From Schmidtea nova (taxonomy: Eukaryota): a DNA stretch of 64,000 nucleotides. The stretch lies in assembly GCA_044892505.1 (NCBI GenBank), contig CM097882.1, positions 584,722,001-584,786,000 of the forward strand, read 5' to 3'. Numbering within the stretch: position 1 is the stretch's first letter; each line of letters opens with the position of its first letter. Shown in pieces: positions 3,383 to 38,779 of this stretch. The notes under the pieces are model-generated. The model searched no databases. It was not told where the DNA came from and saw only the letters and a program-made list of their open reading frames with translations. The translations under genes were made by a program, and so were the position numbers.

Positions 3383-3865
3383 ATGATAAGTAATATTAAT
3401 TATATGGGCAAGTGTTTAGTTCCAAACATGTTATTTCCTGTTGGGAAACCCCAGCAAGTTATAGATAGGAGTGGAAAGTACCCTATTTTATTTTTCAGAT
3501 CGGGAAAATTTCGTGTAATGGGTTGTAAACAACCGTTAAAACCAGATGATTTGAAATATAAAATTTCAGATTTAAAAATTCAATCGATCACTATAACATT
3601 GGATATGGGTAAATCCATAAATTTATACGAATTACAAAATAAAACAGAGTTCTGGTACGAACCCGAAATATTTCCAGCTTTAAGATTAATAAATTATAAC
3701 CCTATTTGTATTAATATTTTTTCAAGTGGAAAAGTTGTAATATTAGGAATTAAAACATTGGATTATTTTAATCAAGTAAATGAAATTAAAAATTATATTA
3801 ATTCATTAATTAATAATGAATTAATTGATGAAAAATATCTCGATTTATTATTTAATTTTGTTTAA
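3383..3865 (+). CDS. TATA-binding protein (TBP) homologue, minimal core of ~160 aa, Polinton-encoded
   Basis: Two TBP repeats. [14 protein letters not shown] matches [36 protein letters not shown] matches [32 protein letters not shown]...[14 protein letters not shown] matches SYEPELFPGL...LIFVSGKVVLTGAK. First ATG at 3383. Confidence 0.87.
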   Translation: [160 protein letters not shown]

Positions 3866-5843: not shown

Positions 5844-5934
5844 ATATTTAATAAATTGAATAAAAGAAAAGGGTGATTGGAAGATATTGTGTCCACCACT
5901 AGATATAAAAGAAAATGAGGAATAGACAAGAAAA

Positions 5935-7934: not shown

Positions 7935-8108
7935 AATATTTTCGAAGGAGGATATTGAAAAATAAAACAGAACCAGAAACTAGATTTTTGCTCGAACCAA
8001 TGCCAAAATTAAGCGGAATTGATACGTTAACCCGATGGCATACTCCAACATTTGAACCAACAACACCTGTATATCCAAGCGAAAAATTAAAAGAGATGAA
8101 ACCATTAG

Positions 8109-10809
8109 ATGAGATTCGAATTGCATCAGAGAAAATTGAACCCAACGAGTGCGGAAATCGAACGCAAAAATATGCTTGGATTACCATGCAGTTATGCGTT
8201 AATGACAATGATGGTGGGAGGAAAACAACCTTGGATCGATGTTTTGTTTAATGATCGAAGAGTGCAAGCTTTATTAGATTCAGGTTCAAGTCATTCTATA
8301 GTGTCGGAGGAATTTTTAACGTATCGCGAAAGAAAAGAGATGAGGCCGACAAATAAGCGTATCAAATCAATGTCGCTGAATATTATAGGAAAAGTTAACG
8401 CAAAATTGAAGATTGGAGATCAGGAGATTATTCACTGGGTAACAGTAATTAGAAGAAGCCCTGTAAAATGCCTTATTGGTATGGACGTTATGAAGCCGTT
8501 AAAAGGAATTTCACTTGATCTAAATACCGGAAAATTGATAAAAGGTCAAACTGGTGAGGTTATTGAGGAGGTAGGAGAAGTTTTCCTAAATCAATTAGTT
8601 GATATATCGTCAAAAAGCGAAATAATATATTATGCAGATGCAACGAATGCACCAGGCGAAGAATGCATATTTGAGCCAAATCCAAAATTAATAGAAAAAT
8701 ATGATTTACCTATGTGTGATGAGATAGTGAGAGTCAAAAATAAATTAGTGCCAGTGCAAATAGCGAATTGTGGCACAAAATCCATTCAGATGCAACCCAA
8801 AACAAAATTGGGGAAATTGACAAAGATTGAAGCTGAAGAAGCTCAGAAACTACCGAGAAATATCAAAATTTATAAAAACCTCAAGTTACAAGCAATGATT
8901 TAACAGATGATCTAAAGAAAGAATTTACAGCACTATTAATGAAATACAAAAGTGTGTTTGCTAAACATGAATACGATTTGGGACTTACTCAAATAATTGA
9001 GCATGAGATACCTTTGCTGGATGAAACTTCTATCAAATTGAGACCATATAGAATTCCTTACGTTTATCAAGAAGAAAGTGATCGACAAATTAAAGCAATG
9101 AAATAATTCAATATTATACAAGACAGTTCGTCACCATTTTCATTATCGATAGTGATTATTAAAAAGAAAGATGGAGAGTTGCGATTTTGTGTAGATTATC
9201 GAAAGTTGAATCAGGCCACGAGAAAAGATACGTATCCTATTCCAGTTCCACAGAAAATGTTTGATCAAATGGGCGAGATACAATTTTTCACAGTAATTGA
9301 TTTAAATAAAGGATACAACCAATTTAAAGTAAAAGAGGATGACGAGAGAAAAACAGCATTTTCAGACGGTAAAGGTCTATATGAGTTTAACGTTTTAACA
9401 TTTGGATTAACTGGAGCACCGGCGACTTTCTAGAGAGGCATGAATTTCGTATTGCGAGACATTCCACAAGCATTAATCTATATTGACGACATAATAATAT
9501 TCTTAAGTGATTTTCAAGAACATTTAAAAGATGTGGAAACAGTATTCAAACGATTATTAAATGCAAATTTAAAAATAAAACCATCAAAATGTGAGTGGGG
9601 AAAGTCTGAAGTTGTCTATGTGGATCATATTATTTCACGGCATAGATTACAGCCAAATCCGGAAAATGTGGAGAAAATCAAAAGTTATCCCATTCCTACG
9701 GATGTGGATCAAGTTCGCCAATTTCTTGGATTAGCAATTTATTACAGAAAATTTATTAAAAATTTTTCACGTGTAGCACAACCTTTAAAAGTACTGTTAA
9801 AAAAGCAAACCAAATTTAAATGGACTACGGCTCAGCAAGAAGCATTTGACAAGCTCAAGGAAAGTTTATTAAAACAACCGATATTGAGATGTCCAGATTT
9901 TAAAAGACCGTTCATCTTAATGACAGATGTTAGTAATTTTGAATTAGGTGCAGTATTGGGTCAACAAGTTGAAGGCGAAAAAGGTCATGTAATCGCTTAT
10001 GCTAGTCGCACATTGAAACCACATGAAAAGAATTACTCCACAATTGAAAAAGAAACTTTAGCACTAGTATATGGAATTACTACTTTTCGACAATATTTAA
10101 TCGGGAGAAAGTTTATCGTCTTTACCGATCATAATCCATTACAATGGCTCATGAAGCACAGAAATTCATCAAGCAAGTTGATTAGATGGTCAATTGCGTC
10201 GCAAGAATATGATTTCGAAATTAAGTATCGCTCAGGAAAGTCGAATGCGAATGCCGATGCGCTGTCGAGAATTAATAGCGGAGATGATGTTAGTAAAAAC
10301 GAGACAAATTATGAAAATACAATATTTATGGCTATTAAAACTATAAATAATATAAAAGAACTACAAAATGATCAAGAGAATGATATTGAATTAAATCGAC
10401 TACGTCAACATGCAGTCACAATCAAAAAAGAGAGTGACTGGAAACAAGTTGTTGAAGAAAAACATAAATATATTATCCATGATGGTTTGCTAAAATGTGT
10501 GAAAAATGAAAATTTATTAATTATCGTTCCAACAAAACATCGAAAATTATTACTATTGTTGTATCATGATGGAGCATTGGGAGGACATTTATCAGCACGA
10601 AAAACGTTATCAAAGCTAAAGCAAAAATATTATTGGGATACCATGGAACAGGATGTCAGACAGTGGTGTCACACGTGTGAAATATGCTTGACTAGGAGAA
10701 ATACAGGAAAGAAGATTAAAGTTCCACTAAAGCCAATGCCAGTGCCAGAAGTGCCAATGGAAATGACAGCAATGGATATCGATGGTCCATTACCAGAAAC
10801 AACAAATGG

Positions 10810-10853
<44 letters not shown>

Positions 10854-11849
10854 CTTTTGTAACTATTTAACAAAATGGCCAGAAGCTTAACCTATGCCAA
10901 ATCAGAAAGCAAAAACAGTAGCAAAAATATTTGTTGAAAACATAATCTTTCGATATGGAGCGCCAAAGAAATTACTTACAGATCAAGGAACGAACTTTCA
11001 AAGCGATTTATTCAAGTCAGTCACAGAATTATTCGGGATAATGAAAATTAATACATCACGATATCATCCACAAACAGACGGTCTAGTTGAAAGATTCAAT
11101 GGAACATTAATTAATATGATATCATCCTACGTGAACAGAAAACAGAAAGATTGGGATTCGTTTATAAAGACATGCCTATTTGCGTATCAAAACGCCGTGA
11201 ACGAAAGCACCGGTGAAACACCTTTCTACCTCATGTATTTACGACGTAATAATATGCCAATTGATTTGAAATTTCAGTCACCTATTTCTCAATACATGGA
11301 CATATCCGATTATAAAGTAATCATGCAAGAGAGATTACAGTCAGTATGAGTTCAAGCAGGTCTTTAAAAAAACATCAGCAAGAAGCCTACAAAGAATCCT
11401 ACGATAAACGCGCACATGCGCATGATATTAAAATTGGAGATCTGGTATATATAAATAAATCAGAACCAACAAAAGGATTATCAGTAAAACTGCAAAGACC
11501 TTATAAAGGGCCATATTTAGTATGCGAATCTACAGAGATTAATCTGAAGTTACGTCCACAGAATAATAAAAAGGCTGAAACAATTATTGTTCATGTTAAT
11601 AGATGTAAAAAGGTACCGGTAGAAAACATAAAACGGTACCCACTACGATCAAAGCAAAATAAAGATGATGACATAGTCATACAAAAATTTGCAAAACACC
11701 CAGCCCCATCAAGTTACATCAATAGTTTTGTTAATTTCAACAGTAATGGTGTTGAATATTTTGTGTATGAATGCAATAGGGTATTCTCCATCATTTGCGA
11801 CAAAACGAATTCCATTGTTAGAGACAATCAATACATTTGCAACATGTAG
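8109..11849 (+). pseudogene. Gypsy pol: protease, RT, RNase H, integrase (HHCC, DDE, GPY)
   Basis: LLDSGSS; LRFCVDYRKLN, YIDD; TDVS..LGAVLGQ..YSTIEKE; H..H..C..C; MDIDGPLP, TDQGTNF, VERFNGTL, GPY. TAG at 9431-9433 and further disruptions. Confidence 0.92.
10812..10846. repeat. (AT)n microsatellite expanded inside the integrase coding sequence
   Basis: About 17 AT units after GPLPETTNGN, shifting the frame. Confidence 0.95.
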
Positions 11850-12841
11850 CCAGATTGTATGGGTTTATTCTTGTGAAAAAGAGGAGGAAGTATAAATAAA
11901 TTATTTATTAAATTATTTCGAATTACAATAATAATAATTATGTTGCACGTCATCTGACAATGAACTACAAATATCCGTGGCTGTTAACACAGCTAGATTC
12001 TAAAAAAACACTACGGAAATACGTAATATTGTTAGAAGATGGGAGAATCCTAAAAATATTAAAATTAAAATATTACACAGTAGGGACAGATAGATATTGA
12101 ACAAATATACATATACAGAAATAAGCTACAGAAAAATTGGTTTGATGACAATATTCAAGATAACTATGAGGATAACAATTTGGTGATTTATTTTGACAAT
12201 TATGACTATATTGATTATGCTACTATTTTATTTTATTTTGATCATGACAATTATAACTGTATTGATTGTTTGGTCACTTTTATTTTTATGGTGATTGATG
12301 TAATAAAGAGAAAGATTATTTAATAGATGTTATATTTTTCAGTCCGAATTTTTAAAGAAATCCTTGTTTTGCATTAAAATAGAAAATGGAAATTATAAAT
12401 AACATTTGATGTCCAATTTCAATTGTGCAGTTGCAAGTACAAAAAAAGTGATTTAATTTATTTATTAAATTAATTAAGTAATTAATTTTTATAGAAAGAT
12501 TATACAAAGAAATTATAGTTATTAAACCAATTTCTTTTGCGTAACCCCTTTATAAAAATTTGTGTAACAATTTGATCAAGTACTTCCTGTTAATAAATAA
12601 AATTTAATATTTGCTGTATTATAATTGTTTTGTATAAAATAATAAATTTCAATAAAAACAATACTAACGGCTAAAATAAGTTCCAAATGTAGAACGTGGA
12701 TAAAAAGCACAACATAAACCAAAATATTCGTGATCCCAAAATATTAAAGGAGTAGTGTAATAGGCTAACGGTTTTAGTAGAATGCGAGGGACACGTCGCG
12801 CAAGTTCCGGCTCCTCGCCTTTGGGGTTTCTAAATAATAAT

Positions 12842-12960
12842 TGTTGTGATTAAAATATTAATCACACATCAATTTAACAAAATATTAATTTTGTTTAAAT
12901 AATTAAATATTGTGATAAATAAATATTTTGAATTTTATCTTATTATGTCAAATCATAACA
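12842..12960 (+). repeat. 5' LTR (119 bp)
   Basis: TGTTGTG...CATAACA; identical by eye to 16443-16561. Confidence 0.96.
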
Positions 12961-13697
12961 TTGGCGACCACGCGGCAATTCAACAACAATCAGAAGACGC
13001 TATTTTGCGAGTTTCAATCAAACCATGTCCATTCTACAGAAATAATCCAGATCTATGGTTCAGACAGCTAGAATCCTAATTTAAATTGTCCAAATTATCA
13101 AATGATTCTACTAAATTTCACCATGTTATGGCTTATCTTCCTGAAGATGTCGTTGTCAATATTCCAGAGACAGTTAATGAATTTAACCAAAGTATCAAAG
13201 AAATTATTATGAAGAATTTTGCCAAGCCACTGACAAAATGTATTGAATACGCACTTGGAAAATTTAATCTAGATGATTTAAAACCCACACATCTTCTTCA
13301 GAAAATTAGTACGGCGTTCACAGAAGCTCAAATAACAGACCAACGATTATTGCGACACAAGTTTATTGAAGCTCTCCCAAAAGATATTAGGCTCATAATC
13401 ACAAGTTATCAAGACAAGTCTACGGAAGAATTGACTGCAATAGCGGATGGGATGTTGGCTGTAATGGAAAATGAAACACAATATTCGAATGAACATTTTA
13501 AAATCCAGGCTTTAATGGATGAAATTGCAGAATTAAAAGAAGAAATATTCAATTTAAAAGAAAGTCCCAAGAAATTGAATAACCTTTGTTTCTATCATAC
13601 TAAATATGGAAGAAATGCCAGGAAATGTGACAAATTGAAAGATGGATCCCGATGTGCTTTATATGTGCCGGGAAATGTAAAAACGCTTCGAAATTAA
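12945..13697 (+). pseudogene. gag, one internal TAA at 13077-13079
   Basis: PFYRNNPDLWFRQLES*F, and C-terminal CFYHTKYGRNARKC. The only in-frame upstream ATG is at 12945, inside the LTR. Confidence 0.85.
12962..12972 (+). promoter_or_regulatory. Primer binding site TGGCGACCACG (probably tRNA-Arg)
   Basis: One base after the LTR. Complement of CGTGGTCG-CCA, which fits tRNA-Arg(TCG)-type acceptor stems. The isotype is an inference. Confidence 0.75.
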
Positions 13698-16430
13698 CCA
13701 CCGTCGAAGCGTGTATTCAAAAGCGGTGTACAGTAAATCAAATTTTTATTTTCAATAATAAAGACAAATTTTTAGTGGACACAGTTTCGTGTTTACCTCG
13801 AAAATTTTTCAAGCCAGAAACTCCATACTCATCTCGACTTACAGCTGCCAATAGTACTCCAATAAAATGTTATGGGAATAGGAAAATTGAGTTACGAATT
13901 GATGACAAAACAATTAGTTGGTCTTTCCATGTATGCGATGTATCGCAGTCTATTCTTGGTGCAGATTTTCTAGCAGCACATCACGCTCTAATTGACTACA
14001 AGTTGAAAAGAGTTTCAATTAATTCGATAGTTGATAATAACTTGTTGAATTACTTCAACAAACCAGAATGTAGCGCCAAGATCACAACACAACATGACAT
14101 TGTTTTAAATGATATCGTCAGATCATTCCCAGCAAGGCGATTATATGGCGACAAATTAAAAGCTGCCAAAGATTGGTTTAACAAAATGGTAGACACTGGC
14201 AAATGTCGATTATCAAACTCGCCAATTTCTTCGCCACTAGTTGTTGTAAATCAAAATGGAAAATACAGATTTTGCGGTGATTACAGAAATCTGAACACTG
14301 CAACCATACCTGACAGATATCCAATTCCAAGAATCGAGGATATATTGCAGATTGTGAGAAATAAAAAATACTTCTCCACTATCGACCTTGAGAAGGCGTA
14401 TTTACAAATTCCAATGAACGAGAGTGACATTCCAAAGGCAGCAATAACTACGCCGTTTGGTATGTATCAATTCCTTTTCATGCCTTTTGGATTACGAAAT
14501 GCCCCATCGACCTTTCAACGAACAATTGACACAATATTGCGAAAATTTTCATTCGCAAGAGCATACTTGGATGATGTAATTATTGCATCAGACACAGAAG
14601 AAGAACATGGCAAGCATTTACAAATAATTGCAAATGAATTGAATAAAGTTGGATTTTTAATCAATGTAGAAAAGTGCAAAATTATGCAATCTGAAGTAGA
14701 TTTTTTGGGCCACCACATATCGAGAACTGGAATTTGTCCTTTAGAAATCAAAATCAAAACAATTCAAAATTATAAATTGCCAGAGACAACTAAACAAATA
14801 AGAAGATTTTTAGGTATAATTAATTTTTATAATCGTTTCATTTCAGGGGCTGCAAATAAATTAGAATTGCTATATAAACTTATCAATTCAAAATCAAAAA
14901 AGATAATTTGGACGGATGAAGGCCTAAAATGTTTTGATGAAGCGAAACAAATATTACAAAAAACGACCGAACTCGCGTTATTTCATGAATTGGAACCTAC
15001 CACTTTGAGAACAGATGCCTCAGGATCAGGAATTGGAGCAGTACTGGAGCAAAACGGGTGACCAATATCATTTTTTAGCAGACTGTTAATGAACACAGAA
15101 TCCATATACAGTACATACGACAGAGAATTACTTGCAATATACAAAGCTTGCAAGCACTTCCATAATTTCCTCGAAGCCACTGAATTCGTAATACAGACGG
15201 ATCACAAACCGATTACCCAAGGACAACCAAAAGATCCAAGCAACAGACAATGGAGACATCTCCAATATATTCATGAATTTCAGTGCAAGATAGTATACTG
15301 CCCTGGAAATAAAAACCAAGTTGCTGATGCACTCTCTAGAACAGACGTTCAATTAGTTTCAGATAACGTTTACCCGTGGCTGAATGAAGAGATACTACAA
15401 AAGCAGAAAGAAGAGATGAATCATAATAAAGATGAATTATTAATGAAAAATGGGAAATTAATATTACCTCCGAGTCTCAGAAGAGAAGCTTTTCAGATGA
15501 TTCACAATATCGCTCATCCAGGAATACGAAGGACCAAGATATTGATGTTGAGTTCATATACATGGCACAAAATGACAAAGGATGTCCAGATGTGGTGTCA
15601 GCAATGCGATTCCTGCTCAAAATCAAAGGTATATCGTCATATCAAAGCGCCATTGCAAACATTCCCAGCAGCTAGTCGGTTTCATACTCTTCATATTGAT
15701 ATTGTTGGACCTCTTCCAGCAAATAACGGTAAGTCCTACCTACTGACAATGATTGATAGGCAAACATCATGGCCTGAGGTGATAGCCATTAAAAATATAG
15801 ATTCAGAAACCGTGGCAAAATCTCTAATTGAAGTATGGATTTCCCGATATGGAATTCCATCCGAAATCGTAACAGATTGTGGTAGGCAATTTACAAGCTC
15901 TTTATTCCAGTATATGTGCAATGTTCTTGGAATAAATACAAATCAAACATGCGCTTATCATCCTCAAGCCAATGGAAAAGTAGAAAGATTCCATCGAACA
16001 CTAAAATCTCAAGTTATGGCTTCAATGGATAAAACTAATAAAAGGTGGATTGACGTATTACCTCAGGTACTGTTAACGATAAGGAACAGTCCAGATTCAA
16101 CAGGTTACTCTCCGGCGCAGAAAGCATTTGGATGTGATCTTGCTGTACCAGGAATTATGTTTAATTCCCCAAAATAAGCTTCTTCATTTCAATTAAAAGA
16201 AATTATTGAGAGCTTCAAAATAATCGAAAGACCACTGCAAGATGGTATGACAATCCCGAAATCTATTAAGGACTTTGAATTTGTGTAATTGAGAAAAGAT
16301 GTACGGAAGTCTTTAGAATCTCCATATACAGGTCCGTTTCGTGTATTAGAAAAGCAGCCAAAATATTTCAAGCTATCGTATCGGGAGAATGTATCAGTTG
16401 ATCGTCTAAAACCAGCATGGCAATCAATTT
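13652..16430 (+). pseudogene. pol (PR-RT-RH-IN) in the -1 frame relative to gag, with several stops
   Basis: FLVDT; YRFCGDYRNLN, YLDD; TDASGSGIGAVLEQ; HIDIVGPLP, TDCGRQF, VERFHRTLK; YTGPF. Slippery G GGA AAT at 13670-13676. Stops at 15059, 16175 and ~16288. Confidence 0.92.
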
Positions 16431-16441
16431 AGGAGGGAGAA
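16431..16441 (+). promoter_or_regulatory. Polypurine tract
   Basis: AGGAGGGAGAA immediately before the 3' LTR. Confidence 0.88.
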
Positions 16442-16442
16442 T

Positions 16443-16561
16443 TGTTGTGATTAAAATATTAATCACACATCAATTTAACAAAATATTAATTTTGTTTAAA
16501 TAATTAAATATTGTGATAAATAAATATTTTGAATTTTATCTTATTATGTCAAATCATAACA
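16443..16561 (+). repeat. 3' LTR (119 bp)
   Basis: Identical copy of 12842-12960. Confidence 0.96.
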
Positions 16562-17563: not shown

Positions 17564-18382
17564 ATGATAAATGGAATCAATGTATATTCGGAACCCCAGG
17601 AATCCCAACAAGTAAAAACGATTTTCCAAAATTACGTGATAGACACACTGAATAGTAGAAAACCCTTTATAAATTATGTTAATCTAAAATTATTTCAGAC
17701 TTATAATATTGCACTTCACTATTATGAGAAGGCTTTATATGAAAACGGCACCGAGAAGGAAAATCAATGGATCAAAGTTCACACCAGCCAACAAACCATT
17801 ACATTAATTAATGAAACAAATAGAGTTCAGTTTCACATATATCATCAAACAATAAAAGTCACCAGACAAACAGACCCCAATCAAAAGGCCAATCAAAAGG
17901 CGGTTATATATTGTTATGGGAAAATTCAAGCAACTTTAGACAATAAAATACAATCTCAAACAATAATCTTTCAACAATCGCAATCAAAACCAATGTCGAG
18001 ATTAGTGCTCGTATAAATCAAATATTACCGTCGTACTCTAAATTCAAATCTATGGCAGATTACTTTAGTCGAAAATAAACTCATTCAAGTCTCATATGAT
18101 GAACTATACCCAAATGATTCACACCAATATCAAACCACGACAGTTCTTAATGACATTACTTTTGTTAATAACTCAAGTGCAAATAATCAAACTACATCGT
18201 TTCTAAAAATTAATAACGAGACTATGTGCATAACACTGATCATAATTATCATTTCCTTAACAATAGTTCTAACCGTTATCATTGCTATCGTAGTGTACAT
18301 ATTCGAAAAATCATTCCAATCTCCGACAAATCAATCCGAGGATTCGAGACCTAGGATTGTCTACGAGGAGACATTTGTATAG
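17564..18382 (+). pseudogene. Unknown single-pass membrane glycoprotein-like ORF (273 codons, one internal TAA at 18014-18016)
   Basis: The frame stays open after the stop to TAG at 18380. Several N-x-S/T sequons (NGT, NET, NSS, NQT) and TM segment CITLIIIIISLTIVLTVIIAIVVYIF. Confidence 0.55.
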
Positions 18383-18793
18383 TAAGACAACAATAATATG
18401 CATGCAATTTGATTAAAGTAGTAATAGTACATCATTTAACATTTATTTATTGATGACATTGCATTTTATATAGTGATTACAATTTTTTTGGTTAATGTAA
18501 AACTGCTTTTCAGTATTTGCTGAGAGAATGAATTTGATTGGATGACGAAAAAAAATATTGATAGGTAATTTAAGAAGGTATATAAGATAAGGGGTCATTC
18601 ATTATATCTAAATTTTTCAAAAATTCAAACATAAATTTTTTTCACAATCAGATGTTTTTGGAAAACAATGGGTAATTAATTATTTATTTATTTATACGGC
18701 TACGAGTTGAGGCGGTATCCTTTGGGTACCCAACCTCAATCATGGCTTCAAATTTAAAATTGAATTAAAATTAATTGTAAATAATTCTAGCAA

Positions 18794-20205
18794 ATGGAAC
18801 AAATACCATGGACAGGACAATTTATGACAGTTACCACAAACTCCACAGAAGCCATACCGACCAAAGATAAAGAATCGATCAAAATCTGGAAATACCAAAT
18901 TATCTCCGAATCGACGGTAGAAGAATGAAAATTCAAATTCTGAAGCTACATCGCAAGTTAAGAATAAAATTGTCTGAAGAAGTACAAATGGCCAAAAGGA
19001 AGATTATTTCTTGCACATAATCAAAGGAACAGTCGAGATTATGAATGAGCGAAACCAGTCCTGGCTATAAATGAAAAAATTTACTACGTGGAAACTTCAG
19101 GAGGAGATAATGAACAAACCGTTGAGAGCCGTCAATAAAGATGTAATAATGGTCATAGAAATCAAAATCGACAATGAAATAGGACTGATTCCAAGTAGAT
19201 ATCCAACAGATGGGAACGATGAACCATTAATGGAAATTTCGGAGGAGATCCTGAAAAGGAAAATGTCATTTATCAGGAAGCAAATATGTTTGGAAGAAAT
19301 CCGCAACCGAATATTATTTATCGACGCGGAATATGGACACTCCAAAGCAGGAAAGATGATTCCCTTGTCTGTGGTCATCATGAACTATCATGGCAAAATA
19401 ATCCGAAACAATTTCATCACTCCAAGAGGAAAACTGAGGTATTAATTCAAAGATTCATGGGATAACAGAAGTTGCCAGTAGAAATCAATCGGATCAATAT
19501 TCTGAGATGAAAGAAATACAGGAATTGACCAAAGAAAAAATATTGATTGGGCACGATCTTCATGCTGAACTGGAATATCTGCAAATATGGATCAATAGAT
19601 TATATGGAGTGCGGGATTTAGCAGCAGCGCAAGTGTTGAAATTAATGAATGTTAGCCGAAAAGGAGAGTGGTTTAAATTGAAAACCGTAACTCAAAAATT
19701 ATGCGGAGAAGAAACGCAAACAGGTATCCACACTGCGTTGGATGATGTGAAGAGTATTAGAAAGATATACTTGAAAGTGGAAAGTGAATGGATTGATGAT
19801 GTGACGATTCCTAGGAAGCAGCCCTCAAAAAAATATTCGCTAGAGGAATACAAGAATCTACGAGGGCAAAGTACATCAGAAATAGTACAGATTTCAGAAA
19901 TTGTGGATCTAACCACAGAAGAATCCAGGATGGAAATCGAATTCCCGGCCAGACAATTGAATTGGGCAACAGAAAATAACTTAAAAACTAAGGAAGAGAG
20001 TTTAGAAGTTATTGAAAGTTTAATGGAGGGAATATCAGAATATAAACTGGAATATGGGCCAATGCCTAAAGATAAAAATAGAAAGAGGAAACTGAGTGTA
20101 GAGATCGAGGAAAATGTAACGTATGCAGGAAAGGTGTATGTTCGAGAAGAAACAATTGTTCGAAACCGGCATGGAGAAAAGAGCTTCAAGATTAAATTCA
20201 ATTAA
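18794..20205 (+). pseudogene. REX4/ISG20-like DEDDh 3'-5' exonuclease gene with N- and C-terminal extensions; frameshifted
   Basis: ILFIDAEYG (ExoI), VVIMNYHG, bridging frame SKIHGIT, LIGHDL (ExoII), VRDLA, QTGIHTALDD (ExoIII). Confidence 0.8.
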
Positions 20206-23017: not shown

Positions 23018-23055
23018 CTGATTGGTTGGTGTGCTGATCTGATCAGTATAAATAC
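23018..23055 (+). promoter_or_regulatory. Putative Pol II promoter: inverted CCAAT box, 21 nt, TATA box
   Basis: CTGATTGG (23018-23025) and GTATAAATAC (23046-23055). Confidence 0.55.
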
Positions 23056-24508
23056 TGAACCAGAATCTGATAATTTTAATGATTTTTGAGACTGAGTTTT
23101 AAACTTAGACTTTGTGAACGATTTTTCTGAAACAATTTTTGCACTTCGAAATTTGCTATTTAATTGAAGGTATGAATATTTTTGGTGTTTTAATTGAAAT
23201 TATTCGGTTTAATTTTATGTTACATGATTTTTGTCATATGTCTTCAATATATGATTCAATAATTTTTATCGTTGATATTTCATAAATAAATTTTATATTA
23301 ATAATGTATGAAAGTGTGCTCCTTCCACTGTGTAATCGGTGGAAGGAGGCAACCCTCTCAGGGGTAGCATAGCTGCCACGTGGAGGGTTAGGCCATCTTC
23401 GTAGTACTAGGTGCCATGAAGAAGGTAGGAATTTGATATTAACTATTCATGTCATTATTACTGGCCAGTATAGCCAGATTGCTGTTATTTTTACATTAGC
23501 AAATACTTTTATCTAGTATAATTGATCAAGCAATAAATGAACTTTATTATTTGTTTTTGAAGTTAACATAAATGACTTATTCTAAACGACACCGAGGTTT
23601 TCTTTTGAGATTGCCATCAGGGATTTGGTGCATGTGGCTGCTGATATTTCCTGAAAGTGAAGGATTATATTCTGTCGAATACTTCCAAGGACAATATCGT
23701 CCTGATGACTTAAAACTGCTAGCAGATAAAAGGGTAACTACCAACCACAAATGACAGAATGTTCATTATATTATTATCAACTGATAGTGGCAGAATAATG
23801 ATTGGGTGTCCATGTCGAATAAATCGAGGTAGGTGCTCACGATTAGAATGGAGCAGATTTTAAACCCAATCTTTGTAAGATACATCGTAGGAATCGGAAA
23901 GGCGTACGCCTATCGTAGATTGAGCATATTTCATCCCACAAAGACAGATGGTCGTCGTCAGGTCGAATGGAGGCACGGAAAATGTACCATAACACACAGA
24001 TTATAAATTACACACAAAATTCTAATCTTTAATAAATCAATACTAGCTGTAAATTCACCACATTAATGATGCACGATGATGAGTTAGGTAGGTGTTCAGA
24101 TGACAAACTGCCTACTACATTTGACATAGCGATCTAACTGTCAACCGTAGACCGATCAAAAACATTTATCTAAATTTAATAGACTGATCCCTGTATATAG
24201 GGCAGTAGTATTTTTAAAATTTGAAATTAAATTATTATCCTGATTGCTGTAGATAACACAGGCATAAATGAATATTCTAAATAAATTAATCTGATCGCTG
24301 TACATAGCGACAGTGTTTGAAATGTATAGTATATTTGCTTCATTTTCAAGTCTCAAAAGCCTAAATATATAAACATGAATGGAATCGTCATTTAAACAAT
24401 GACATGAGGTCTGTCGGAGTTACTAAATGTATTGTCAAATCCGATTAATTAATCGATCATTAAATACGAAACTGAAAATAAATCATAATAATCACAATTG
24501 GTTTTCAG

Positions 24509-25106
24509 AATAGTGTCAACAAATCTCGCAACTTCAACTGAATTGGATAAGGTTTGGTGAATCATTCGCAGCCTAGAAAAGGAACTCCAACTAACCAAGG
24601 AAAAACTAAAGAGTTCAGAAACAACCAATTCACACCTTCGCAAGAGCTGGTTCAATCCAGAACAAATGAAACAACAGATGATAAAAAGTCAACGCGCCCT
24701 ACGAGCAGGCGAGGAATACCGGATAGAGCTCGAGGTGACGAAAATCGAACTGCGAAAATGTTTGAAATCGGTGACAACCTCATTCATCGAAGACGAGCTG
24801 AAGGAGTTAATTCGACCAATCACATTCCAACGTTGGGCGTCAGAGAATTCAGGACGTTCAGTAGGAACAAATACTGAGGGGTCATCGCAAATCCCCAACG
24901 TCATCACCACAATGGCACCGGTTGAAACAATCTCATCCGCAATGGAAATCAAAAAGAAGAAGAAAAATAAAATGGGATCAAGACAGAGAAGATGGAAGAA
25001 GCAATTTTCACAACAAATAATCCATCACAATTATGAACTACCAGAAATCGATCTGATGACAGATTTCATGGCATTTGATGAAGAATTTCTAAAATTCTCC
25101 GATTAA
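24509..25106 (+). CDS. Unknown coiled-coil protein with Lys/Arg-rich motif (cassette copy 1); upstream part has a TGA at 24558
   Basis: ORF 24666-25106; the frame extends to a ttttcag acceptor at 24508. Homologous to ORFs at 55106 and 57116. Confidence 0.55.
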
Positions 25107-25863
25107 ATTGCGGAATTTAAAATTTTATTAGTTGTACAAATATAGTTATTATTATTATTTTTTTTGTGTTGTATTAATTTTCTGTAAAGTAAAGTAGTTA
25201 ACAGAAAAATTATTATTAAATGATTGAGTTTTTAAAGTATAAATTATTCTGGTATAAAATAATTAATAAAGATTACAGATCAACATTAAGATTTAAAGTA
25301 AAATATATCATAATTTTTAAGATTAACTGTTGATATTGTAAGAAAAGGGCAGGAATAATAAAATGAAAGATCATGGATACAGATAAAGTAAAGTGAAAGT
25401 AAAGCGTAAGTCCTTCTATCGGCAGCAATGGACCCGCGAACATAAATGGGGAGTAGTTCTAGAAATAGAGCTCATCTGCCCATCATTGTTCAAACACCTA
25501 GCACATTTCCAACTCGACTATCCAGGGAAATAGTCGAGGGTGCTTGTGTGTCACGTAAGTATTTTATGTTTGGTCGTGGATGGAGGCATCCTTAGAATGT
25601 TTTGGCTAATGGAAAGCCCGAGCTAACGTAAAACCCGAGCCAATGGAGAACCCGGGCAATGAGGAGAACCCGAGGTGACAAGATAATTGCCTTGAAAATT
25701 AATGTTCCCGGCAGAAGGCAAATGATAATTAGCATCTAAATTGCCTCAAAATGTAAATTGGAATTTCGAGATTAAAAATTGAACGTTTAATGGCCTTTAA
25801 CGAGCAATTTACCATTCAAACGAAATAAAACAAATAAATCAACTTTCAAAATTTGATATAAAA

Positions 25864-26562
25864 ATGCAGACCATTCGAATCCAATCTATTCAAAGGACTA
25901 TGCACAAAATACAAAATAAAAAAGTCAGAACAACATCATACAACTCACAGTCAAATGGCAAAGTAGAAAGACTTCACAGATCCTTAAAACAAGCGATACG
26001 GACTAAAGCTAATGACAGAAACTGGTTAGAAAAACTGCCAGAAATACTAATCCGACTACGAAACATCCCATCTTCGATAAATAATAATAGCCCTAGCCAA
26101 CTAACTTTCGGACATTCAACAAACTTAATAAAAAATATCGAAAACACTGACAAAACATTCGAAGTCAAAGCACAAACAAAGCAAAACGAAACAAAAGAAT
26201 CTTTCGTAAATAGAAATGACAAACTCAAACATTCAAAAACAAATCTCATCGTCGAGTCGGTATTAATAAAAAAACCACTCACCAGCGGTTTCGAGTCAAA
26301 ATATGAAGGTCCCTACAAATTAATAAATCTGAATAAAAATGTGGACACACTACTTATTAACAGCAGGGAAATCAGAATCAACATTCGCAGGTTAAAACCC
26401 TATCAATTTAACAACCAAACAACACAAAATCAAATTAACAAAAAACCCCAACAACTTCCTAACAGAAACACAACAATCATACCAATAGAAAACAAACGAT
26501 ACAGCGACTGCCTAAAAAAACACCAACACACACAAGTAAAACATATGCACAAACAATGTTAG
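25864..26562 (+). pseudogene. Gypsy integrase C-terminal fragment
   Basis: TTSYNSQSNGKVERLHRSLKQAI..WLEKLPEIL..R..P..SPSQLTFG..YEGPYKL..INIRRLKPY. Confidence 0.88.
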
Positions 26563-28056: not shown

Positions 28057-31000
28057 CATAACTATCATTATAATCAGTATTATGATTATTGTTAGTATTA
28101 GTATTGTTATTATTATTATTGTTATGGTTACAATACCTTTGATATTGTCATTGTTATTATACTATCATTAGGATTTTGCGGTTGTGGTTGTTTTGCGACA
28201 ATTAGTTATTAGTGAAGTGGTTTCTTTTGTGTATGATTTCGGTGAAAATTTCGGTGCATTTCTGGTCTAGTGCCAAATTAATGTTGATGTTTTTCTTTTG
28301 TTCTAATCATTCATTATGACGCCGGTTGATGGTCAGTCTTCCAGTTTCTAGTGGCGTTATTTCCGTCATTTTCGTTGTCTTTTTCTTTTGATTAATTTTC
28401 TATCTTTCAGCACAATTACCAGTTTCGAATTGTTTATTTGTGGACTTAATATCATTGTATTAAATACATAAAATAAATTGAAACGAATTCGAAGACGAAT
28501 CTAAAATAAAGGGTAGATGTGTCGATATTATTCTAAAACAGTGCAAGTATAACGAGAGTGCGCAGAGGATTGAAGGAAAAATCAATAAAAAGGCTGAAAA
28601 GCGTTAAATTCACAATTAATAAATAAGTACAAAAAAATAATTAAAAATTTGACAAAATAAACATAACGGGGAAATTGCTATGTACGAATGGCAAATGGGG
28701 AGACGAGTACGAATATGATAATAAAACATCAATTGGGGATCCCAAAAAAAAGATATTTAATAAATAGAAATTAATTAAAAATTAATGAATAATTTATTAG
28801 TTATGTAGAAAACCGGAGTCAGGAGAAAGCCCGAGCAAAGGGAAACCCGAGATGATATCAAATTACGAAAAGCGCGGATCAAGTAAATCGAATTATAACA
28901 AATTTTAATCAACAAAAATCAAATTACTGAAGTTCATAATCAAATTTCATCTTAAGTTAGGAAACATAATCAATTTGTTGACAAGTTAGAAAACTAGAAA
29001 AGTGGCAAAGAAACAACATCGAATTGCCAGTTTGGTTGAAGAAAATTGTCATTAGTTATAACGATTTTGTAAGTTAGAAGGAGGATATTGTAAAAGAAAC
29101 ATTAGCATATCAAAGCGTATCAGAAAGGGCAACCTACCCTTGGTAGACCTACCCCTATCGCTTAGGAAAAGTAAGTTTAGATTGTGATTTTTCAGCGTCT
29201 ATTTATACTAAATTTACTGATACCCACATATGTTGTTATTTATATAATGATATTAACGATTTAAACTTACTTATTAGTCTTAATAAGTCAGTATTTATTT
29301 ATTTTTTTTTTATTTAATTTTTATTTAATTTAATTTTTTTTTATTTATTTATTTATTTAACTTTATTATTTGATTTATTTATTTTCTAAAATATTTGTTT
29401 TTAATTCTTTTAAATGAGGTATTTATCCATTGTTTTTTATGCGTTGATTGATTGATTAAAACAATCAAATTTATTTTCAAATCTATTTTCATTCCTATCT
29501 CTGTAATTTTTACGATATTTCAATGGGGATTTTTTTCTATAATTTTTAATAAATTATTTTCTTTATTCTGATACCGATTTTATTCTTTGATCATGCTTTT
29601 CATATTCACTATACAAGCGCTAATCTTCTCCAATCAATTCTCGTGAGGTCCTTCGTGTGTAAATCCGACCTGCACTCAAATTATGTGCTTTCTTTTGAGA
29701 TGCCTCTTTTTTATATTTTCAGCCCTATCTCGATCGACTTATGAGATGCGGTTCGTATGACTACTATTTGTACTTTAGTATTTTATAATCTTTTGTGTCG
29801 TTTTACTGCCTAACGCTTTATCGTACGTTTTGAATTTATTTCCCTTTGTATATATTTAATTTTTGATAAATTTAAACAAAAATTATTTTCAATTCCGCCA
29901 ACCCAACAGAGATAATAATACAATATATACTAAGAATAATATTTAAATCTATGTTGATATTTCGGGAGTTGTGTTGAGTATATGGTCCCTATATATTTTG
30001 AAGGCTTATTGTTCTTAAATGAGGTCCATTGTCGTTGTTCCATGATCCAATAGTACCCACTATTATCGCTGATAATGTGGTTTTGTATCTGTTCACACTT
30101 GCTGTATCGATGGCATGGTTAATATATTTCTCATTGTTCTCTTCTCTAGCATTGGCAAAATTTATTTATATGGTACTATGATGTCCACTATTTATATCTT
30201 AGTGTAGTATTAATTCCAGGAAGGGCATTTTCAATATCAACATCAAAGTTTTTATTAATAAAAAAATTATTTACCTTTTCGAGAATTTGGGTATGTTTTA
30301 ATTCTAGTATTAGTTTATAGTATTCTTATGTTTATTTATTTATTCATAAAATTCATGGTGTTTCAGGGTCATCGAAGGCTCTCTGGGTCGTTGGCCTTCG
30401 GTGGCTTGAGTCGTTAGTACCGCAACAGGTGTGGCGGATGACTTAAGCTATCGATAAATTTTAAATTGATGTATATATTTTTAGAACGAACTGAAGACAT
30501 TAAAGTTATGTCACGGTTAATTGTTCATTTTTGAGGAGCGAAAGAAATAATTTTTACTAAATATGAATTTTTTGTCCGATTTCGCAGCAATGATATTTTC
30601 CTTGGGTGGCCGTCAAGTTTATGATTCTCAAAAATGGTATAGTGATATTGAAACTTAGGGTAAATTAACACAATAAACTACGAAATCCCTACTAGTTAAA
30701 TAGTCCAGTAAAAATGTTCTTAGAAGTCTAAATAAAATCTAGAAAATTAACCTGAATAAAATTATAGAGTTCACTAACGAATAAAGCAATAAAAACCGTT
30801 ATCTACTCGAAATTCACTACGAGTAATTAACAATTTTTAGAATCAGACAGTAAATGAAAATCAACAATAATTAACTCCGTGTTGAGGATACCTAAATATT
30901 AAATAATATTATAAATAAATAGAATAACTTGGGGGAAACCGATAGGGTGATTGAGATAGCATTCTGGAACTTGGAGAAGAAAACAGAACGCTTCCCCTTG

Positions 31001-32675
31001 TGCTTAACTAATGCTACTAACTATACGAAGCTAACGAGACTTTTCTCTTGGATAGCTAGAAAAGATTATTAAATCGTTATTCCCGGATGCTACCACACTT
31101 TGTGAGTCGAATTAGTATAATCAAATTAGTATCTCTAAAAAATTTACCCTTAATAAAGTAATAAAAGAAACATAAAAATACAAGCTAAAACTACTACTAA
31201 TATGCTATTAATTTACATCAATCGATAAAAATAACACAAAAATTTAATGTCATCCGAGGAGTTAGATTTCTGTGAGGAAATCCTGGGTCTCATCAAACGA
31301 CTGTGGTCGAATTCCATCGATTGAGTAACTCTTGGGTGTTTAATAGGACACAACTTGGTTTAATAGGCGAATATTTCGAGAATCCGAATTTTGGAGCCCA
31401 TGCAGATTTCTGCCGCCTTGTCTTATTGAACCGGAAAAGAAGGTTATTGAATTGTATTCTCTCACTGTTGCGGACATAACGAGTAGAGTCCAAGATAATC
31501 ATTCAGAGGGCGTTTAATTGGGAAACTGGAAACTCCCGAAAAATGATCAACCATCGCGGCAACTGATCCTGATCCCGGAAAGGGATAAACCAGTTCGGAG
31601 TGGCTTCCGGATTATTGATGATTGAGTAGGATCCTTCCAACCACATATCCTCCGCCTGTGGTGATTTGCTTGCACAATCACACCAATGATTAAATTATGG
31701 TGGTGTAGTACTCGTCGGAGATGTGACAAATTAAAATCCTCGACCGGTGTGTCAAATTGGCGATTGACCCGGTCGACTATGACACAACTAAAATATCGAC
31801 AATTTGGATCGGTCGAATTTCTCTTTATAAATGGTAGAAATTTATTTACCTTATTAACTGTTAGTTATGTTCGCCGTATCATCCATGGATTTATCAATCT
31901 AAACCCTTTCTCGTCTCGATAAGAATTAATAAAAAATTCTCACTATGTTCGGATCGGACACAATTATTATGACTATGCTATATTATTACTGCTCGAACTG
32001 CTCTATGAAATCGACTGTCATATTTGTCGCATATTCTACAAAATATATCAATTGCTACATGTTGTCATTAGATTGTCCTACGTGCTATCAACGAATTCAA
32101 AAATCATTATAATTATTACGTGTTGTATGTGGAATTTCTCAAAAATATAAATTTGCCCTTATTCAATGTCTTCAATCCCAAAAATAATTATCAAAAATTT
32201 TCTATTGAGTAAATATCATTATTTCATGACCTGTGTGGAATAATGCAATCCTACTGTTGTTTTCATTTTTCAATTGAATTCCTCAATAATTCATTTAACG
32301 ATCTACCAAATGTTGCATGTGGGATTTATAAAAACTCAAAATTTTAATCATTACAATTGAATGCCCTACGTGCAAAAATCCCTACCTTTATTTGGTGCCA
32401 AGTCGCCACATCTACCCAACCCAAGAAGGAGTCACGGTCGAGAGGCTTTCCGCCCCGTGATCAAGAAACCACCGGGCCGCACATTAATAAATATAGGGAA
32501 AATGAGGGGTTACCCGACAATAATAAATGAGATGATTAAAACCAAATCTATGAATACATTTTATTGATCCGAATATGAATTGTACAATGTTTCAACAAAG
32601 ATATAAACGATTTTCAATATCGCAAAATTATAACAAGTAACAATGTTAAAAAATGTACAAGGTACAAGATAAATC

Positions 32676-32730
32676 AACTGATTTCAACGCTGGTATTTAT
32701 ACTAGTTTGGGATTCCAACCAGCCAATCAG
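32676..32730 (-). promoter_or_regulatory. Putative Pol II promoter (CCAAT-N21-TATA, Inr-like TCAGTT)
   Basis: Minus strand reads CTGATTGG-N20-GTATAAATAC, then TCAGTT at 32681-32676. Confidence 0.55.
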
Positions 32731-33289: not shown

Positions 33290-34482
33290 TTCAATTTTTA
33301 TGAGAATTTCAATTCGGAAAAGATTTTCGAAAGTACTCGAAGCATATTTCAAAGCAACTCAGGGATTCGTTTGTGGGAAATTAGCATTGATTGTTTTCTT
33401 GTAATCTGGATTTTCCTATGATATTTGACAAATTTGTAGCAAGATAATTCTCCAATTATTCAATGCTCTGTTGTTGAATACCTTTGTATTCTTTCTGATA
33501 GTCTTTGCTTAAATTCATTGGAGTCATCATTCCAAATGGCATTGTCAGTGTCCTTACAGAGCTGTATTTCCGAACGATACTGATACGAAACATCTTGGAA
33601 GTCAAGAATGTTTGGTAAAAAAATTCTTTCTGCATCACCAACTTGAAATCCGATATGATAGATGTCAGTTACTTTATATTCACATTTCTTTAAAAGATCC
33701 ATAGGAGTGACAAGTTCAAAAGCTAAAAAGTCATCTGTAGGACATAGATTGAACTTGAGAGATTCGGCAAATGGAGAATCAGAATCTGTCATGCATTCAG
33801 TAACATAGCTATCGTTAGTCTTATTCATATTTAATTGAAGTTCAAATGAGTTCTCAATCTCATTGAGATTTTCCAATCGACTCCATTTGGAACAAACATT
33901 ATATTTACTGATGAATTTCGAACATAAACTATTATCAACAAATTCACAACGAACAGTTATATTTTTATTGATCATAATAAATTACAATGTAAATCACCGA
34001 AAGTAAGAAAAACTTGACACAGACTTCGAAACCAATTAACACCTGAAAAATCACAATTAGTACCGTAAAACAAATCAAATCACCAACTATTGAAAAATCA
34101 CAAATTTCTTATTTAAATTTTTAAAGCCGTCCAATTCACCTCTATTATTTAAACACCCAAATCTTTTTTAATTTTTTAAACAAGCCCTAATATTTTGTTT
34201 TATATTTTACCCAAATTAATTTTAGAAAACAAAACGTTGATCATTCATGTAATCATAAATTTTTAAAGATAAAAAATTGCAAATCAATATCGCGAATAAT
34301 ATCTTCCACTTTTGAACTAGAATTTTCAAATATTATATCATTATTACTTTCATTTAAATTGTCAATTAGAATGCTTAAATCGGTCTCAAGGTCGTGCATC
34401 GATCTCGAAAAATTGGTAAACATTTCATACAAATTTTAAGAATTATTTTCTATCATCATGGATGATTTTCTCGGTATTCCCG
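33290..34482 (-). other. Unknown gene-like sequence (includes ORF 33460-33975), duplicated at 45131-45986
   Basis: Near-identical copy at 45 kb. Upstream CCAAT (34668-34675) and TATA (34608-34616) on the minus strand. No recognisable domain. Confidence 0.6.
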
Positions 34483-35478: not shown

Positions 35479-36637
35479 ACTTAAAAATACAACTTGTTGT
35501 AAAGCTGAAAACATGAAATTTTTGATTTTAATATTAATGACGATACGTCTATTTTAATAATTGAATGTAAACTGTTGAAATCAGTACTTATTTCAGGTTC
35601 AAGTGAACCACATCCGATTTGATTAATAATATTATTATTATTTATAGTTGAATTATTATTATTTATAGGTGAATTATTTATAAGTGTATTATTATTTGAG
35701 GTTAATTTATTAATTGAAAAGGTATTTATTATTAAAGGCATAATTTTATCCTCGTCATCCGAAATGGTTATGATTTATTTTTTAATTAATATACAAGGTA
35801 TTGAAACCTCATTGATTATTTTTCTTTTTGTTGAATTATTATTTTGATTATTATTTATGTGGTATTGTAATTTGATGTATTTTGATTATTATTATTTGTG
35901 TTGTTTTTTTTTTGCCTATTATTATTTAAGGTATTATTATTTGAGGTGTTATTATTAGTCATTTTTTGATTATTATTATTATTAATAATTGATTTTTTAT
36001 ATCCAATATGCTGAGTTAAATAATATCTATGTTTATCATAAAACTCAGTATGGTATGGTAGGGATTCATTGATTTTACACGTTGGGCAAATAAAGAAAGT
36101 GATACTATTATATTTGTAAGAATATTACTTTTCCATAATGAGATGGCAATCATTATGAAAAGTACTATTGTGGTATAAAGAATAATTAGAGCCCATATAA
36201 TAACATTACATCATCGATAGCAGAATCAAATTTTTTAAAATATATATGTCGTCATTGGGTGTAAATAAAGGGGTGTGCAAAAATGGGCCGTGGAGTCACT
36301 TGACTTTGATTGACTATGACTCATTGATTACATAATTCCCTTCGTTACCCCGTCCACACTTCTCCCTACTAACAAAGTAGAAGCGTATTATTTTTACATT
36401 TACTTATGGTTATCACTTTTATTACCATCAATCACGTATTTTGTGTAAAACTGCTTTTCCTATGAGACAAGTATAGAATCAATTTGATTGGCTGACTCTA
36501 AAGAACAAGGAGATATTGAAAATTTGTTATAAGAAATTAATTATAGCGCATATAAGGTGAGCGCTAATCCATTAAACTTAACTTTTTACAAAAATAAAGG
36601 CAATTTTAAAAATTTTAAATCGATAATTTTTTATTAA

Positions 36638-36641
<4 letters not shown>

Positions 36642-36710
<69 letters not shown>
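36642..36710. repeat. (TA)n microsatellite
   Basis: About 34 TA units. Confidence 0.97.
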
Positions 36711-36713
<3 letters not shown>

Positions 36714-36797
36714 GCTACGGGTAAACCAGTACTCTTTGGGCACTTCGTCTTATCCCTAGCCTCAAAAATTAAATTCACTTAACTTTTAGTAAAAAAA

Positions 36798-37470
36798 ATG
36801 GAGCAAATCCCATGGACAAAGACAACATACGACAGCTACGCAAAACTTCAAAGGAATGATGCAGGACAAGATTTTCAAATAAACAACAATTTATAAATTC
36901 CAAACTATTTAAGAATAGACCATTGGAAAATGAAAATCCAGATGTTCAAATTATATCGAAATATAGAAATGAAATTAGCTGATGAAATTCAAGTATCCAG
37001 AAAAGAGGAATACTATCTACATATTATCAAACGAACAGTGAAAGTGATGGATTGAAAACATCAATCGTGGTTTGAATTTAAGAAACTAACTTCCTGAAAA
37101 ATTCAAAAAGAAATTATGTCAAAACTAATATGTGCAGCAAAACGAAAAATCCATTATTGGCTGGGAAACGAGAAAAGACAATGGAGCAAACGAAAGACCA
37201 TGTATATAATCAACGGAGAGCAAGGATTCAAAATTGATACAAATCTCAGAGGACATGTTAAAACGAAGAATGTCATTTATTAGGAAGGAAATGGATCTCG
37301 AAAAGATTCCCAGCTGAATATTATTCACAGGCGCAGAGTATGGCAATTCGGAATCAGGAAAATTGATTCCCTTGACAGAAACCATTATGAATTATAAGGG
37401 TAAAATAGTCAAGGAGAAAAATTCGCAATTTTAATTCAAGGATTCATGGAATTACGGTAGTGACCAGTAA
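36798..37470 (+). pseudogene. Second, more decayed and 3'-truncated copy of the DEDDh exonuclease gene
   Basis: ATGGAGCAAATCCCATGGACA versus ATGGAACAAATACCATGGACA at 18794. Translates ILFTGAEYG..GKLIPL..IMNYKGKI and ..IHGIT. Shares upstream promoter motifs. Confidence 0.78.
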
Positions 37471-38779
37471 GTAATTAGCTAGACAGTTTAATTATCACCG
37501 GGAAAATTGATTTTAAACGAAATCCGAAATACTCAATTGATGAAAAAGTAATTAACAATTTTATTATAATGAATTAGATTAGGAATTTGGCAACTTGAAA
37601 GGCACTCGCTAGACAACCTAATCAGATAAGAAGAATTCATTAAGTTGAACAGTATAAAAAGGAGAAGCAAATTCCAAAGTTTGTCAGAGTAGTTGAAAAC
37701 AAAATTTAGTTAAATATTTGCAAGACGAGAAATCTAGAATCAGTATTAGTTAGAATCAAACTTATTCTTTATAGCGTACCAGAAAGGGAGATCTTCCTTT
37801 GGGAGACTTATCCATACGCCTAATCGGAAAAGCAGTGCGAATAAAAGTTGTTGAAATTACGTAAAGACTTTTTATTATCAAAAATTGTGTCAAATAATTG
37901 TTGTAAAGAATGTCACACTTTCGAATAAATCTTACGGTGTTGGGTTTTCTTGAATCAATCCTATAAAAACACCAAGGAGTCAGACAAATAACACCGACTA
38001 ATTGATAAACCCAACAAAATTATTTATTTTATTTATTTAATATTTTGAAGATAATTTATTTCAAGTTGGATTAGGCATTATCAAAAATTTGCATACTTTT
38101 TCTGTGGGTATTCGTATCAAAATGTGTTATTTAGCATCGGAAAAATAGGAATCTGTATTGTCTGCTGGTAACCTAAAAAAAAATTCGAAGGCTTTGTTAT
38201 TGTGGTGGCTTGTGCACTGCCAAATGAAATTTATGAAGTAAGATTTTTTTTTTGAAATTTTAAAAGGAGATTTAGCGCAATTTATGAAACACGTGGTTAA
38301 ATTAAGATTTTAAAAAATCTTTTTTTATAACTATTTATGGAAATTCTAGTCTTGATTATTTTTTTCTGATGATTAGCAATTTGGTATTACTTTTTTCCAA
38401 TGATTTTATTTCGACAGATTACCACTAAACAATAGTTTTCCTTAAGGTCTTTTCCCTTAAGTATCAAAGGGTATAACTAGCAATAAGTAAAAATCATAAT
38501 TAATATATAAATTTATTCAGTATATTATCACTAAATTATTTGTTTTCAATTCAAACTTTTAAATAACTTAAAGAATTCCTATCAAATAAATATTTTCTTT
38601 CTTCATTATTAAATTATTAAGTTGTTTCATACTTTATTTTCACTTTAATTTTCTAATTTTCGGCAAAATGGGTACACCAGTTTATATTGCATTTTATGTT
38701 ATACAAAACTGTTGTAATAATTTTCTTTAATATATTTATTTATCTTAAATTCCAGGCTCTGATAATTGAATTTCTAGGA

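Follow-up and report, generated by a model that had tools for sequence, protein, structure and literature searches.

The window, i.e. the whole 64,000-nt stretch of a eukaryotic Schmidtea nova scaffold that we analysed, has a GC content of 30%, contains six gaps, and is made up mostly of transposon pieces, in particular Polinton-like genes and Gypsy elements; other fragments in it we take to be piggyBac-like and hAT-like. Within this setting lie three gene units, each with a small ORF that is GC-richer than the window (41%, 51% and 44% for ORF1, ORF2 and ORF3), as an earlier note made from the letters alone had claimed, and each with the same 3' element downstream. All positive evidence on these units was drawn from the window itself. 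The cassette described in that note is partly confirmed: it is real, with corrections, its ORFs do not form one protein family, and its RNA element is the strongest result.

Proteins and promoters of the units

The ORF1 exon (24509-25106, + strand) directly follows an acceptor-like TTTTCAG that ends at 24508; it had been read as open from 24509, but a TGA at 24558-24560 interrupts the frame, and the open part is 24561-25106. ORF2 (55106-55669, + strand) is intact and encodes 187 aa, with its ATG directly after an acceptor-like TTTTTTAG. Imperfect palindromes lie 5' of ORF2 at 53379-53427 and 54150-54255 and may be small inserted elements. ORF3 (57116-57529, - strand, corrected from 57116-57533) is a homologue of ORF1 without an in-frame ATG, and ORF1 and ORF3 are both broken.

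The alignment of ORF1 with ORF3 is borne out, with a score of 167 that is reached by 0 of 2000 shuffles (shuffle mean 33). Because identity by codon position in their 38-codon core is 20, 27 and 14 of 38, and because 11 of the 18 identical residues are encoded by different codons, the ORF1/ORF3 family was under purifying selection as a protein in the past. The weak homology proposed for ORF2 is unsupported: 87 and 882 of 2000 shuffles reach its scores against ORF1 and ORF3, the hhalign probability is 0.2, and 94 of 968 reported shuffles equal its profile score. Of the single family of three ORFs, which the earlier note had made subject to alignment statistics for the second copy, the ORF1/ORF3 pair thus stands and ORF2 is not alignable at the protein level.

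ORF2 has the same layout as ORF1 and ORF3, i.e. a helix, a linker, an Arg/Lys run and a short hydrophobic tail. In ORF1 this takes the form of a helical N-terminal part, a disordered linker, a Lys/Arg run and an IDL-type tail, and in ORF2 of coiled-coil-like helices, an Arg run and a VDII tail. The basic C-terminal motif reported earlier is present in 3/3 proteins, and a short (V/I)D(L/I) stretch follows the basic run in all three; these tails resemble, we assume, a SUMO-binding motif, which they fit better than an export signal, and by-eye inspection of the three proteins found no clear Leu-rich nuclear export signal. Long N-terminal helices are seen in 2/2 structure models, followed by a disordered linker and a basic helix, at low confidence (pLDDT 61 and 68). 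The heptad signal expected of a coiled coil is found in 1/3 proteins, being significant for ORF2 (11/1000 shuffles) and not for ORF1 (128/1000) or ORF3 (661/1000).

Searches of protein databases returned no Pfam match for ORFs 1-3 and no protein relatives for ORF1 or ORF2. A profile of ORF1 and ORF3 had one match among 1.84 billion representatives, which we rejected as a low-complexity repeat protein, and none in viral contigs. Structure matches in the Atlas reached 0.88-0.91 with recognition below threshold, and PDB sequence searches gave none beyond 4 weak matches at E 0.35-0.56; we dismissed both sets as generic helices. Foldseek of both models against viral models gave 0 matches at E 0.001. 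An exact look-up found 0/10 window proteins in the protein collection, and a control, the two-copy exonuclease of the window, likewise had no relatives, so that these blanks say little about novelty; the searched libraries probably lack transposon proteins of this host. Four sequencing runs of one study contain 0.56-0.59 of the unit 1 words, and among the runs listed none of those holding unit 1 words is an RNA run.

The unit 1 promoter (23018-23055, +) consists of a reverse CCAAT box, CTGATTGG, and a TATA box 28 nt apart. That of unit 3 (57989-58026, -) has a CCAAT box, a TATA box 28 nt on and an initiator-like TCAGT further down. The common promoter layout claimed for these two units holds for the boxes and their 28-nt spacing, although the two promoters have nothing beyond the boxes in common (47/500 shuffles equal their alignment). 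The pair with identical spacing occurs at 23018(+), 58026(-) and 32730(-), and in 0 of 30 shuffles. The last of these, absent from the earlier note, is a fourth promoter copy (32370-32730, -) with a leader homologous to that of unit 3 (aligned over ~170 nt, 0/500 shuffles) and a GC-rich region with a donor-like end. It leads to a different decayed ORF region at ~31240-31886, and no 3' element was found behind it. For unit 2 a tentative TATA box is proposed (53207-53334, +, with a donor-like GT at 53333); it shares a 10-mer with unit 3, lacks an intact CCAAT box, and its region is matched by 17/500 shuffles in comparison with unit 3 and 35/500 in comparison with unit 1. Because the promoter recurs without the cassette ORF or the 3' element, we treat promoter, ORF and element as modules.

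Splice-like sites occur where the ORFs start and within the leaders. The GC-rich leader of unit 1 (23310-23435, +) forms three hairpins (z -6.98, 0/200 shuffles) and has a donor-like end (GT at 23425) that, judging from its sequence, may be used in splicing. A structured leader common to the units was considered and rejected, as folding z is -2.11 in unit 4 and +0.15 in unit 2 and no structured leader was seen in unit 3. Further downstream in unit 1 lies a decayed ORF-A (23572-24003, +) with several in-frame stops, no Pfam match, and no similarity to the frames of unit 4 (119-385 of 500 shuffles). Elsewhere in the window, two related DEDD-exonuclease units (18500-20205 and 36450-37840, both +; 65% over 733 nt) each have their own promoter and hairpin leader, and these promoters align with each other (0/500 shuffles) and are, within the window, similar to the cassette promoters. 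The first exonuclease unit carries basic and IVDLT motifs, and just 5' of it lies a broken ORF region (17564-18384, +) with a transmembrane-like segment at its end.

The ordinary Pol II gene anatomy of the units, the intact ORF2 and the purifying selection on ORF1 and ORF3 would also suit a lineage-specific host gene family that encodes small nuclear proteins and has a regulatory 3'UTR structure, copies 1 and 3 being pseudogenes. We consider this quite unlikely, given that 2/3 copies are broken, that the units lie in a transposon-dense region and have a GC content far above background, that modules are mixed between units, and that no family matches, though the control shows that database coverage is poor.

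A folded RNA element downstream of the ORFs

The common non-coding motif that had been reported behind all three ORFs is indeed there: TTCTATC..TGGACCC starts 308, 250 and 197 nt past the stops of ORFs 1, 2 and 3, and the motif pattern, which was drawn from these same three copies, has 3 matches in the window and 0 in 100 shuffles. The element is not merely this 22-nt word; it spans ~165 nt and has three domains. Copy 1 lies at 25402-25570 on the + strand (D1 25402-25435, D2 25446-25483, D3 25507-25542, U-tract 25562-25570), copy 2 at 55907-56069 (+) and copy 3 at 56766-56931 (-). Copies 1 and 3 align over 123 nt with 70.7% identity (E 1e-10), and a profile built from these two alone has copy 2 as its best other match (nhmmer E 0.026; covariance model E 0.1), a ranking that lends modest independent support to a common element. 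Units 2 and 3 stand tail to tail (56069-56766), their 3' elements ~700 nt apart with AT-rich sequence between.

The cassette had been drawn to 25700, but the element ends near 25570, and 25590-25700 consists of other repeats and may belong to a different element. Short AAACCCGAG-type repeats with ~19-nt spacing occur at 25612-25680 and again at 28825-28851 (E 0.1) and are possibly binding sites of another element. Also in this part of the window, a TATA box at 29208(-) points leftwards, and 28983-29171 and 37642-37832 have in common a 200-nt region with a terminal hairpin (E 4e-8).

D1 comprises a 3-bp stem (P3-like; 8/9 pairs form) capped by an invariant UUCUAUC loop, an outer stem that forms in copies 2 and 3 (5/6 and 5/5 pairs) and is poor in copy 1, and then UGGACCC. 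The GG beside the stem can pair with the loop; this pairing is invariant, so covariation cannot bear on it. The long hairpin of D2 contains an unchanging AGU/GCU core together with a 1x3 internal loop; D3, also a hairpin, has an AA bulge, and a UUUUAUG tract comes after it. Over 26 anchored positions in three copies, with the helices chosen on these same copies, 72/78 cells are paired and both sides have changed at 15/26. With the anchor words held fixed, 17/20, 19/20 and 18/20 free pairs form in copies 1, 2 and 3, compared with null means of 7.7-8.0 (0/20000 shuffles each). Copies 1 and 3 alone give 32/34 paired cells (94%; both sides changed in 7/17 pairs), compared with 29-53% in slid controls. 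Since G·U pairs outnumber A·C 8 to 1 across the three copies, the sense strand is favoured. Taken alone, the folding energies of most pieces do not stand out (z -2.9 to +0.3). A conserved sense-strand fold of the ~165-nt element is thus well supported by the copies themselves, and the suggestion that the gene carries a structured RNA in its own transcript is upheld by the computed compensatory base changes.

None of the 4227 Rfam families matches at gathering, with 0 and 3 chance-level matches at E up to 10. Motif scans found one viral and four metagenome matches, the four metagenome contigs looking bacterial; we ascribe all five to chance, the downstream hairpins being absent on inspection. 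Readings as a hairpin, twister-sister or hammerhead ribozyme, an snRNA, a CRESS origin or a primer site were also weighed and gave no fit.

The domain that most invites comparison is D1: its 3-bp stem, pyrimidine-rich loop of 7 nt, outer stem and GG come in the order P3, L3, P1, P1.1, and so resemble the arrangement of the HDV-like ribozymes found in non-LTR elements (P1, P3, 7-nt loop, P1' and GG; PMC3774820, excerpts). The 3' element could on this basis be a self-cleaving ribozyme, undescribed or aberrant HDV-like, that cuts transcripts into units, the role that hammerheads play in Penelope-like elements and Terminons, and Terminons do join coiled-coil ORFs with 3' ribozymes, as the portions of PMC6431247 used here describe. 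We judge this improbable. By the requirements that we took from sections of PMC3774820 (a G in L3, a P2 of at least 5 bp and a catalytic C in J4/2), the loop lacks the G, no consistent non-overlapping P2 exists across the copies, and no catalytic C is common to them; the P1 strands stand 17-19 nt apart, compared with at least 23 in R2 ribozymes in the same sections. The Rfam search likewise gave no ribozyme at E up to 10. The element further differs from HDV-like ribozymes, as described in those sections, in its two additional conserved hairpins and in lying at a 3' rather than a 5' position.

Transposon setting and hallmarks of known elements

A decayed Burro-type Gypsy element occupies 5225-11849 (+), with CCHC knuckles followed by two fusion ORFs and then protease, RT and integrase. 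The two ORFs match the Monjiviricetes fusion family (Pfam; E 6e-24 and 9e-28), so that a fusion env of mononegaviral type stands between gag and protease. In planarian Burro elements env lies between gag and pol, accessory ORFs occur, and lengths exceed 30 kb (PMC6431247, excerpts). By this layout the Burro-type element points to a planarian host, probably a dugesiid. A compact Gypsy element at 12839-16561 (+), which contains in-frame stops, is a recent insertion as judged by its identical 122-bp LTRs. A near-identical repeat (96-98%) with an unassigned 171-aa ORF, at 33290-34482 and 45131-45986, is inserted into other elements. Polinton genes lie near both window ends; a TBP-family ORF (3383-3865, +; Pfam E 6e-16) adjoins Polinton-like genes on the opposite strand, and an ORF among such genes at 61612-62058 (+) presumably resembles a parvovirus-type phospholipase A2 domain.

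The cassettes are consistent with a mobile-element origin, because the setting is transposon-dense, copies are decayed, CpG is undepleted and no host family matches. The hallmarks of particular element classes were sought at the units. No flanking LTR pair surrounds any unit (the longest common words are 10-12 nt and nearly all A/T), which is not decisive because a solo LTR or fragment would also lack the pair. No purine run of at least 11 nt occurs in the 440-450 nt around each 3' element, no primer-binding site was recognised by eye near the units (the window offers 0 tRNA genes for comparison), and no gag or RT is joined to any unit, the sole such piece being a truncated Gypsy-type integrase ORF downstream of unit 1 (25801-26562). 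The units lack a poly(A) tail (their longest A runs measure 5-7) and, since they also keep splice-like sites, are not processed copies. They also showed neither a terminal inverted repeat nor a Helitron end.

Half-L1 elements have an RRM-bearing ORF1, an internal promoter and a poly(A) tail. A half-L1 or LINE ORF1-only element was rejected on the missing Pfam (RRM) match, the upstream TATA box and the short A runs. A Penelope-like element or Terminon was rejected as well, for want of a sense-strand hammerhead, a pseudo-LTR and reverse telomeric repeats: no hammerhead core was found on the sense strands (the opposite strand of unit 1 gave a single loose match), and no telomeric repeats or pseudo-LTR were seen, with one CCCTAA after copy 3 and none after copies 1 and 2.

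The units might form a stand-alone non-autonomous family, in which the 3' RNA is recognised by an RT acting in trans and varied cargo ORFs ride on common 5' and 3' modules. Such an arrangement would suit the same 3' element behind unalignable ORFs, the same promoter ahead of different ORFs, and the presence of 3-4 units in 64 kb without pol, and non-autonomous Chlamys elements have 3' ends in common with autonomous families (PMC8557442, excerpts). Retroposition, however, would leave behind a TATA promoter that lies upstream of the start unless the element carried a second copy of it. No such repeat was found, nor is there a poly(A) or telomeric tail; we therefore hold this reading to be unlikely.

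Upstream promoters and retained introns are what DNA transposition permits, and with Polinton genes at both window ends the units could be genes carried as cargo by a DNA-based element, whether a Polinton, a Helitron or a DNA virus that has integrated; the fold would then act in ssDNA or mRNA. This we think very doubtful, the units lying far from the Polinton genes and lacking a terminal inverted repeat or Helitron end. The sole Polinton link is a 10.9-bit match of the ORF1/ORF3 profile to an ORF at 1-978 (-), named Polinton capsid-like on our assumption; we rejected it, the score being equalled in 1/20 null runs.

Interpretation and relation to known systems

The reading that we favour, at a probability of roughly one half, is that the units are accessory units that have come loose from large LTR retroelements or endogenous proviruses and that their 3' RNA serves in cis as an export or packaging signal. 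Each unit would run from a Pol II promoter through a leader containing splice signals and a gene for one small nuclear protein to a ~165-nt folded 3' RNA. Its transcript would be spliced to produce the protein, whereas the parent element would replicate via intron-containing RNA, and the 3' element would act as a cis-signal for nuclear exit or packaging of that RNA, bound either by the unit's own Arg-rich protein (Rev/Rec-like) or, in a CTE-like manner, by a factor of host or Gag origin. Given an LTR origin, we put the chance that the own Arg-rich protein binds the element in a Rev/Rec-like manner, by analogy, at about one in three.

Because the promoter lies upstream, splice signals are retained and there is no tail, LINE-type copying is disfavoured, and an LTR-type parent or a DNA-based carrier fits. 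Between these two the LTR-type parent is favoured because selection acts on a transcript-strand fold and such an RNA needs an export or packaging signal. The units may be fragments of solo LTRs of great length, or remnants with internal deletions; both would lack pol, a primer site and paired ends, as observed. Promoter, ORF and 3' element may have been exchanged between families or have diverged at unequal rates, which would explain why ORF2 cannot be aligned and why a fourth copy of the promoter exists. A less probable, tentative alternative to detached LTR accessory units is an undescribed modular mobile family of flatworms built around a new structured-RNA class, the RNA serving, with the Arg-rich protein, as a Rev/response-type export switch beyond the retroviruses of vertebrates, or as a new replication signal or ribozyme for trans-mobilised cargo.

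The units fail the tests for Penelope-like elements, HDV-like ribozymes and half-L1, and they cannot be filed under Burro. Like the Burro/GYPSM1 giant Gypsy elements of planarians, one of which decays in the window, an LTR parent would have room for accessory ORFs; the ORFs listed for Burro in excerpts of PMC6431247 (MATH, BIR, BCL2, ankyrin, SUMO-like, Smc) have no Pfam match in the units, however, and the analysis of the window gave no link between the units and Burro sequence. ORF3s of coiled-coil and DEDDy type occur in rotifer LTR elements and are said to be expressed from spliced messages (PMC5408684, excerpts). The units resemble these bdelloid ORF3s and the coiled-coil ORFs of Terminons in their small non-enzymatic helical accessory ORFs, in the spliced expression that we propose, and in the DEDD exonuclease ORFs of the same pool; they also share with Terminons a 3' RNA fold, which in the units is not a hammerhead (PMC5408684 and PMC6431247, excerpts). 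Unlike the bdelloid ORF3s and Terminons, as far as these excerpts describe them, the units have no pol or RT in cis, have their own TATA promoter and lack telomeric repeats.

With Rev, Rex and Rec and their response elements, and with the CTE, as portions of PMC10746203 present them, the units have in common an Arg-rich motif, predicted oligomerising helices, splice signals and a structured RNA. They differ in showing no sequence or fold similarity, in having no clear Leu-rich export signal, an additional requirement of Rev-like proteins (PMC10746203, excerpts), and in their invertebrate host; moreover the 3' element follows the ORF and hence would be present in spliced RNA too, unlike the HIV RRE. 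The likeness of Arg-rich protein and 3' element to Rev/RRE is an analogy, and in its working the unit as a whole would come closest to a retroelement's accessory gene equipped with a cis-acting RNA. We found no description of such a unit in the literature that was searched, outside which most subscription papers and Repbase reports fall.

The main find is thus an RNA element outside all 4227 Rfam families and short enough for probing, cleavage and binding assays. Giant LTR elements dominate planarian repeats and are targets of piRNA silencing (PMC8532177, excerpts), and the 3' element is a sensitive handle with which to find and classify planarian repeats that are as yet unannotated. Rev-type analogues are rare outside retroviruses (PMC10746203, excerpts); should the element and the Arg-rich protein act together, Rev-type control of RNA export would be seen to reach into the retroelements of invertebrates.
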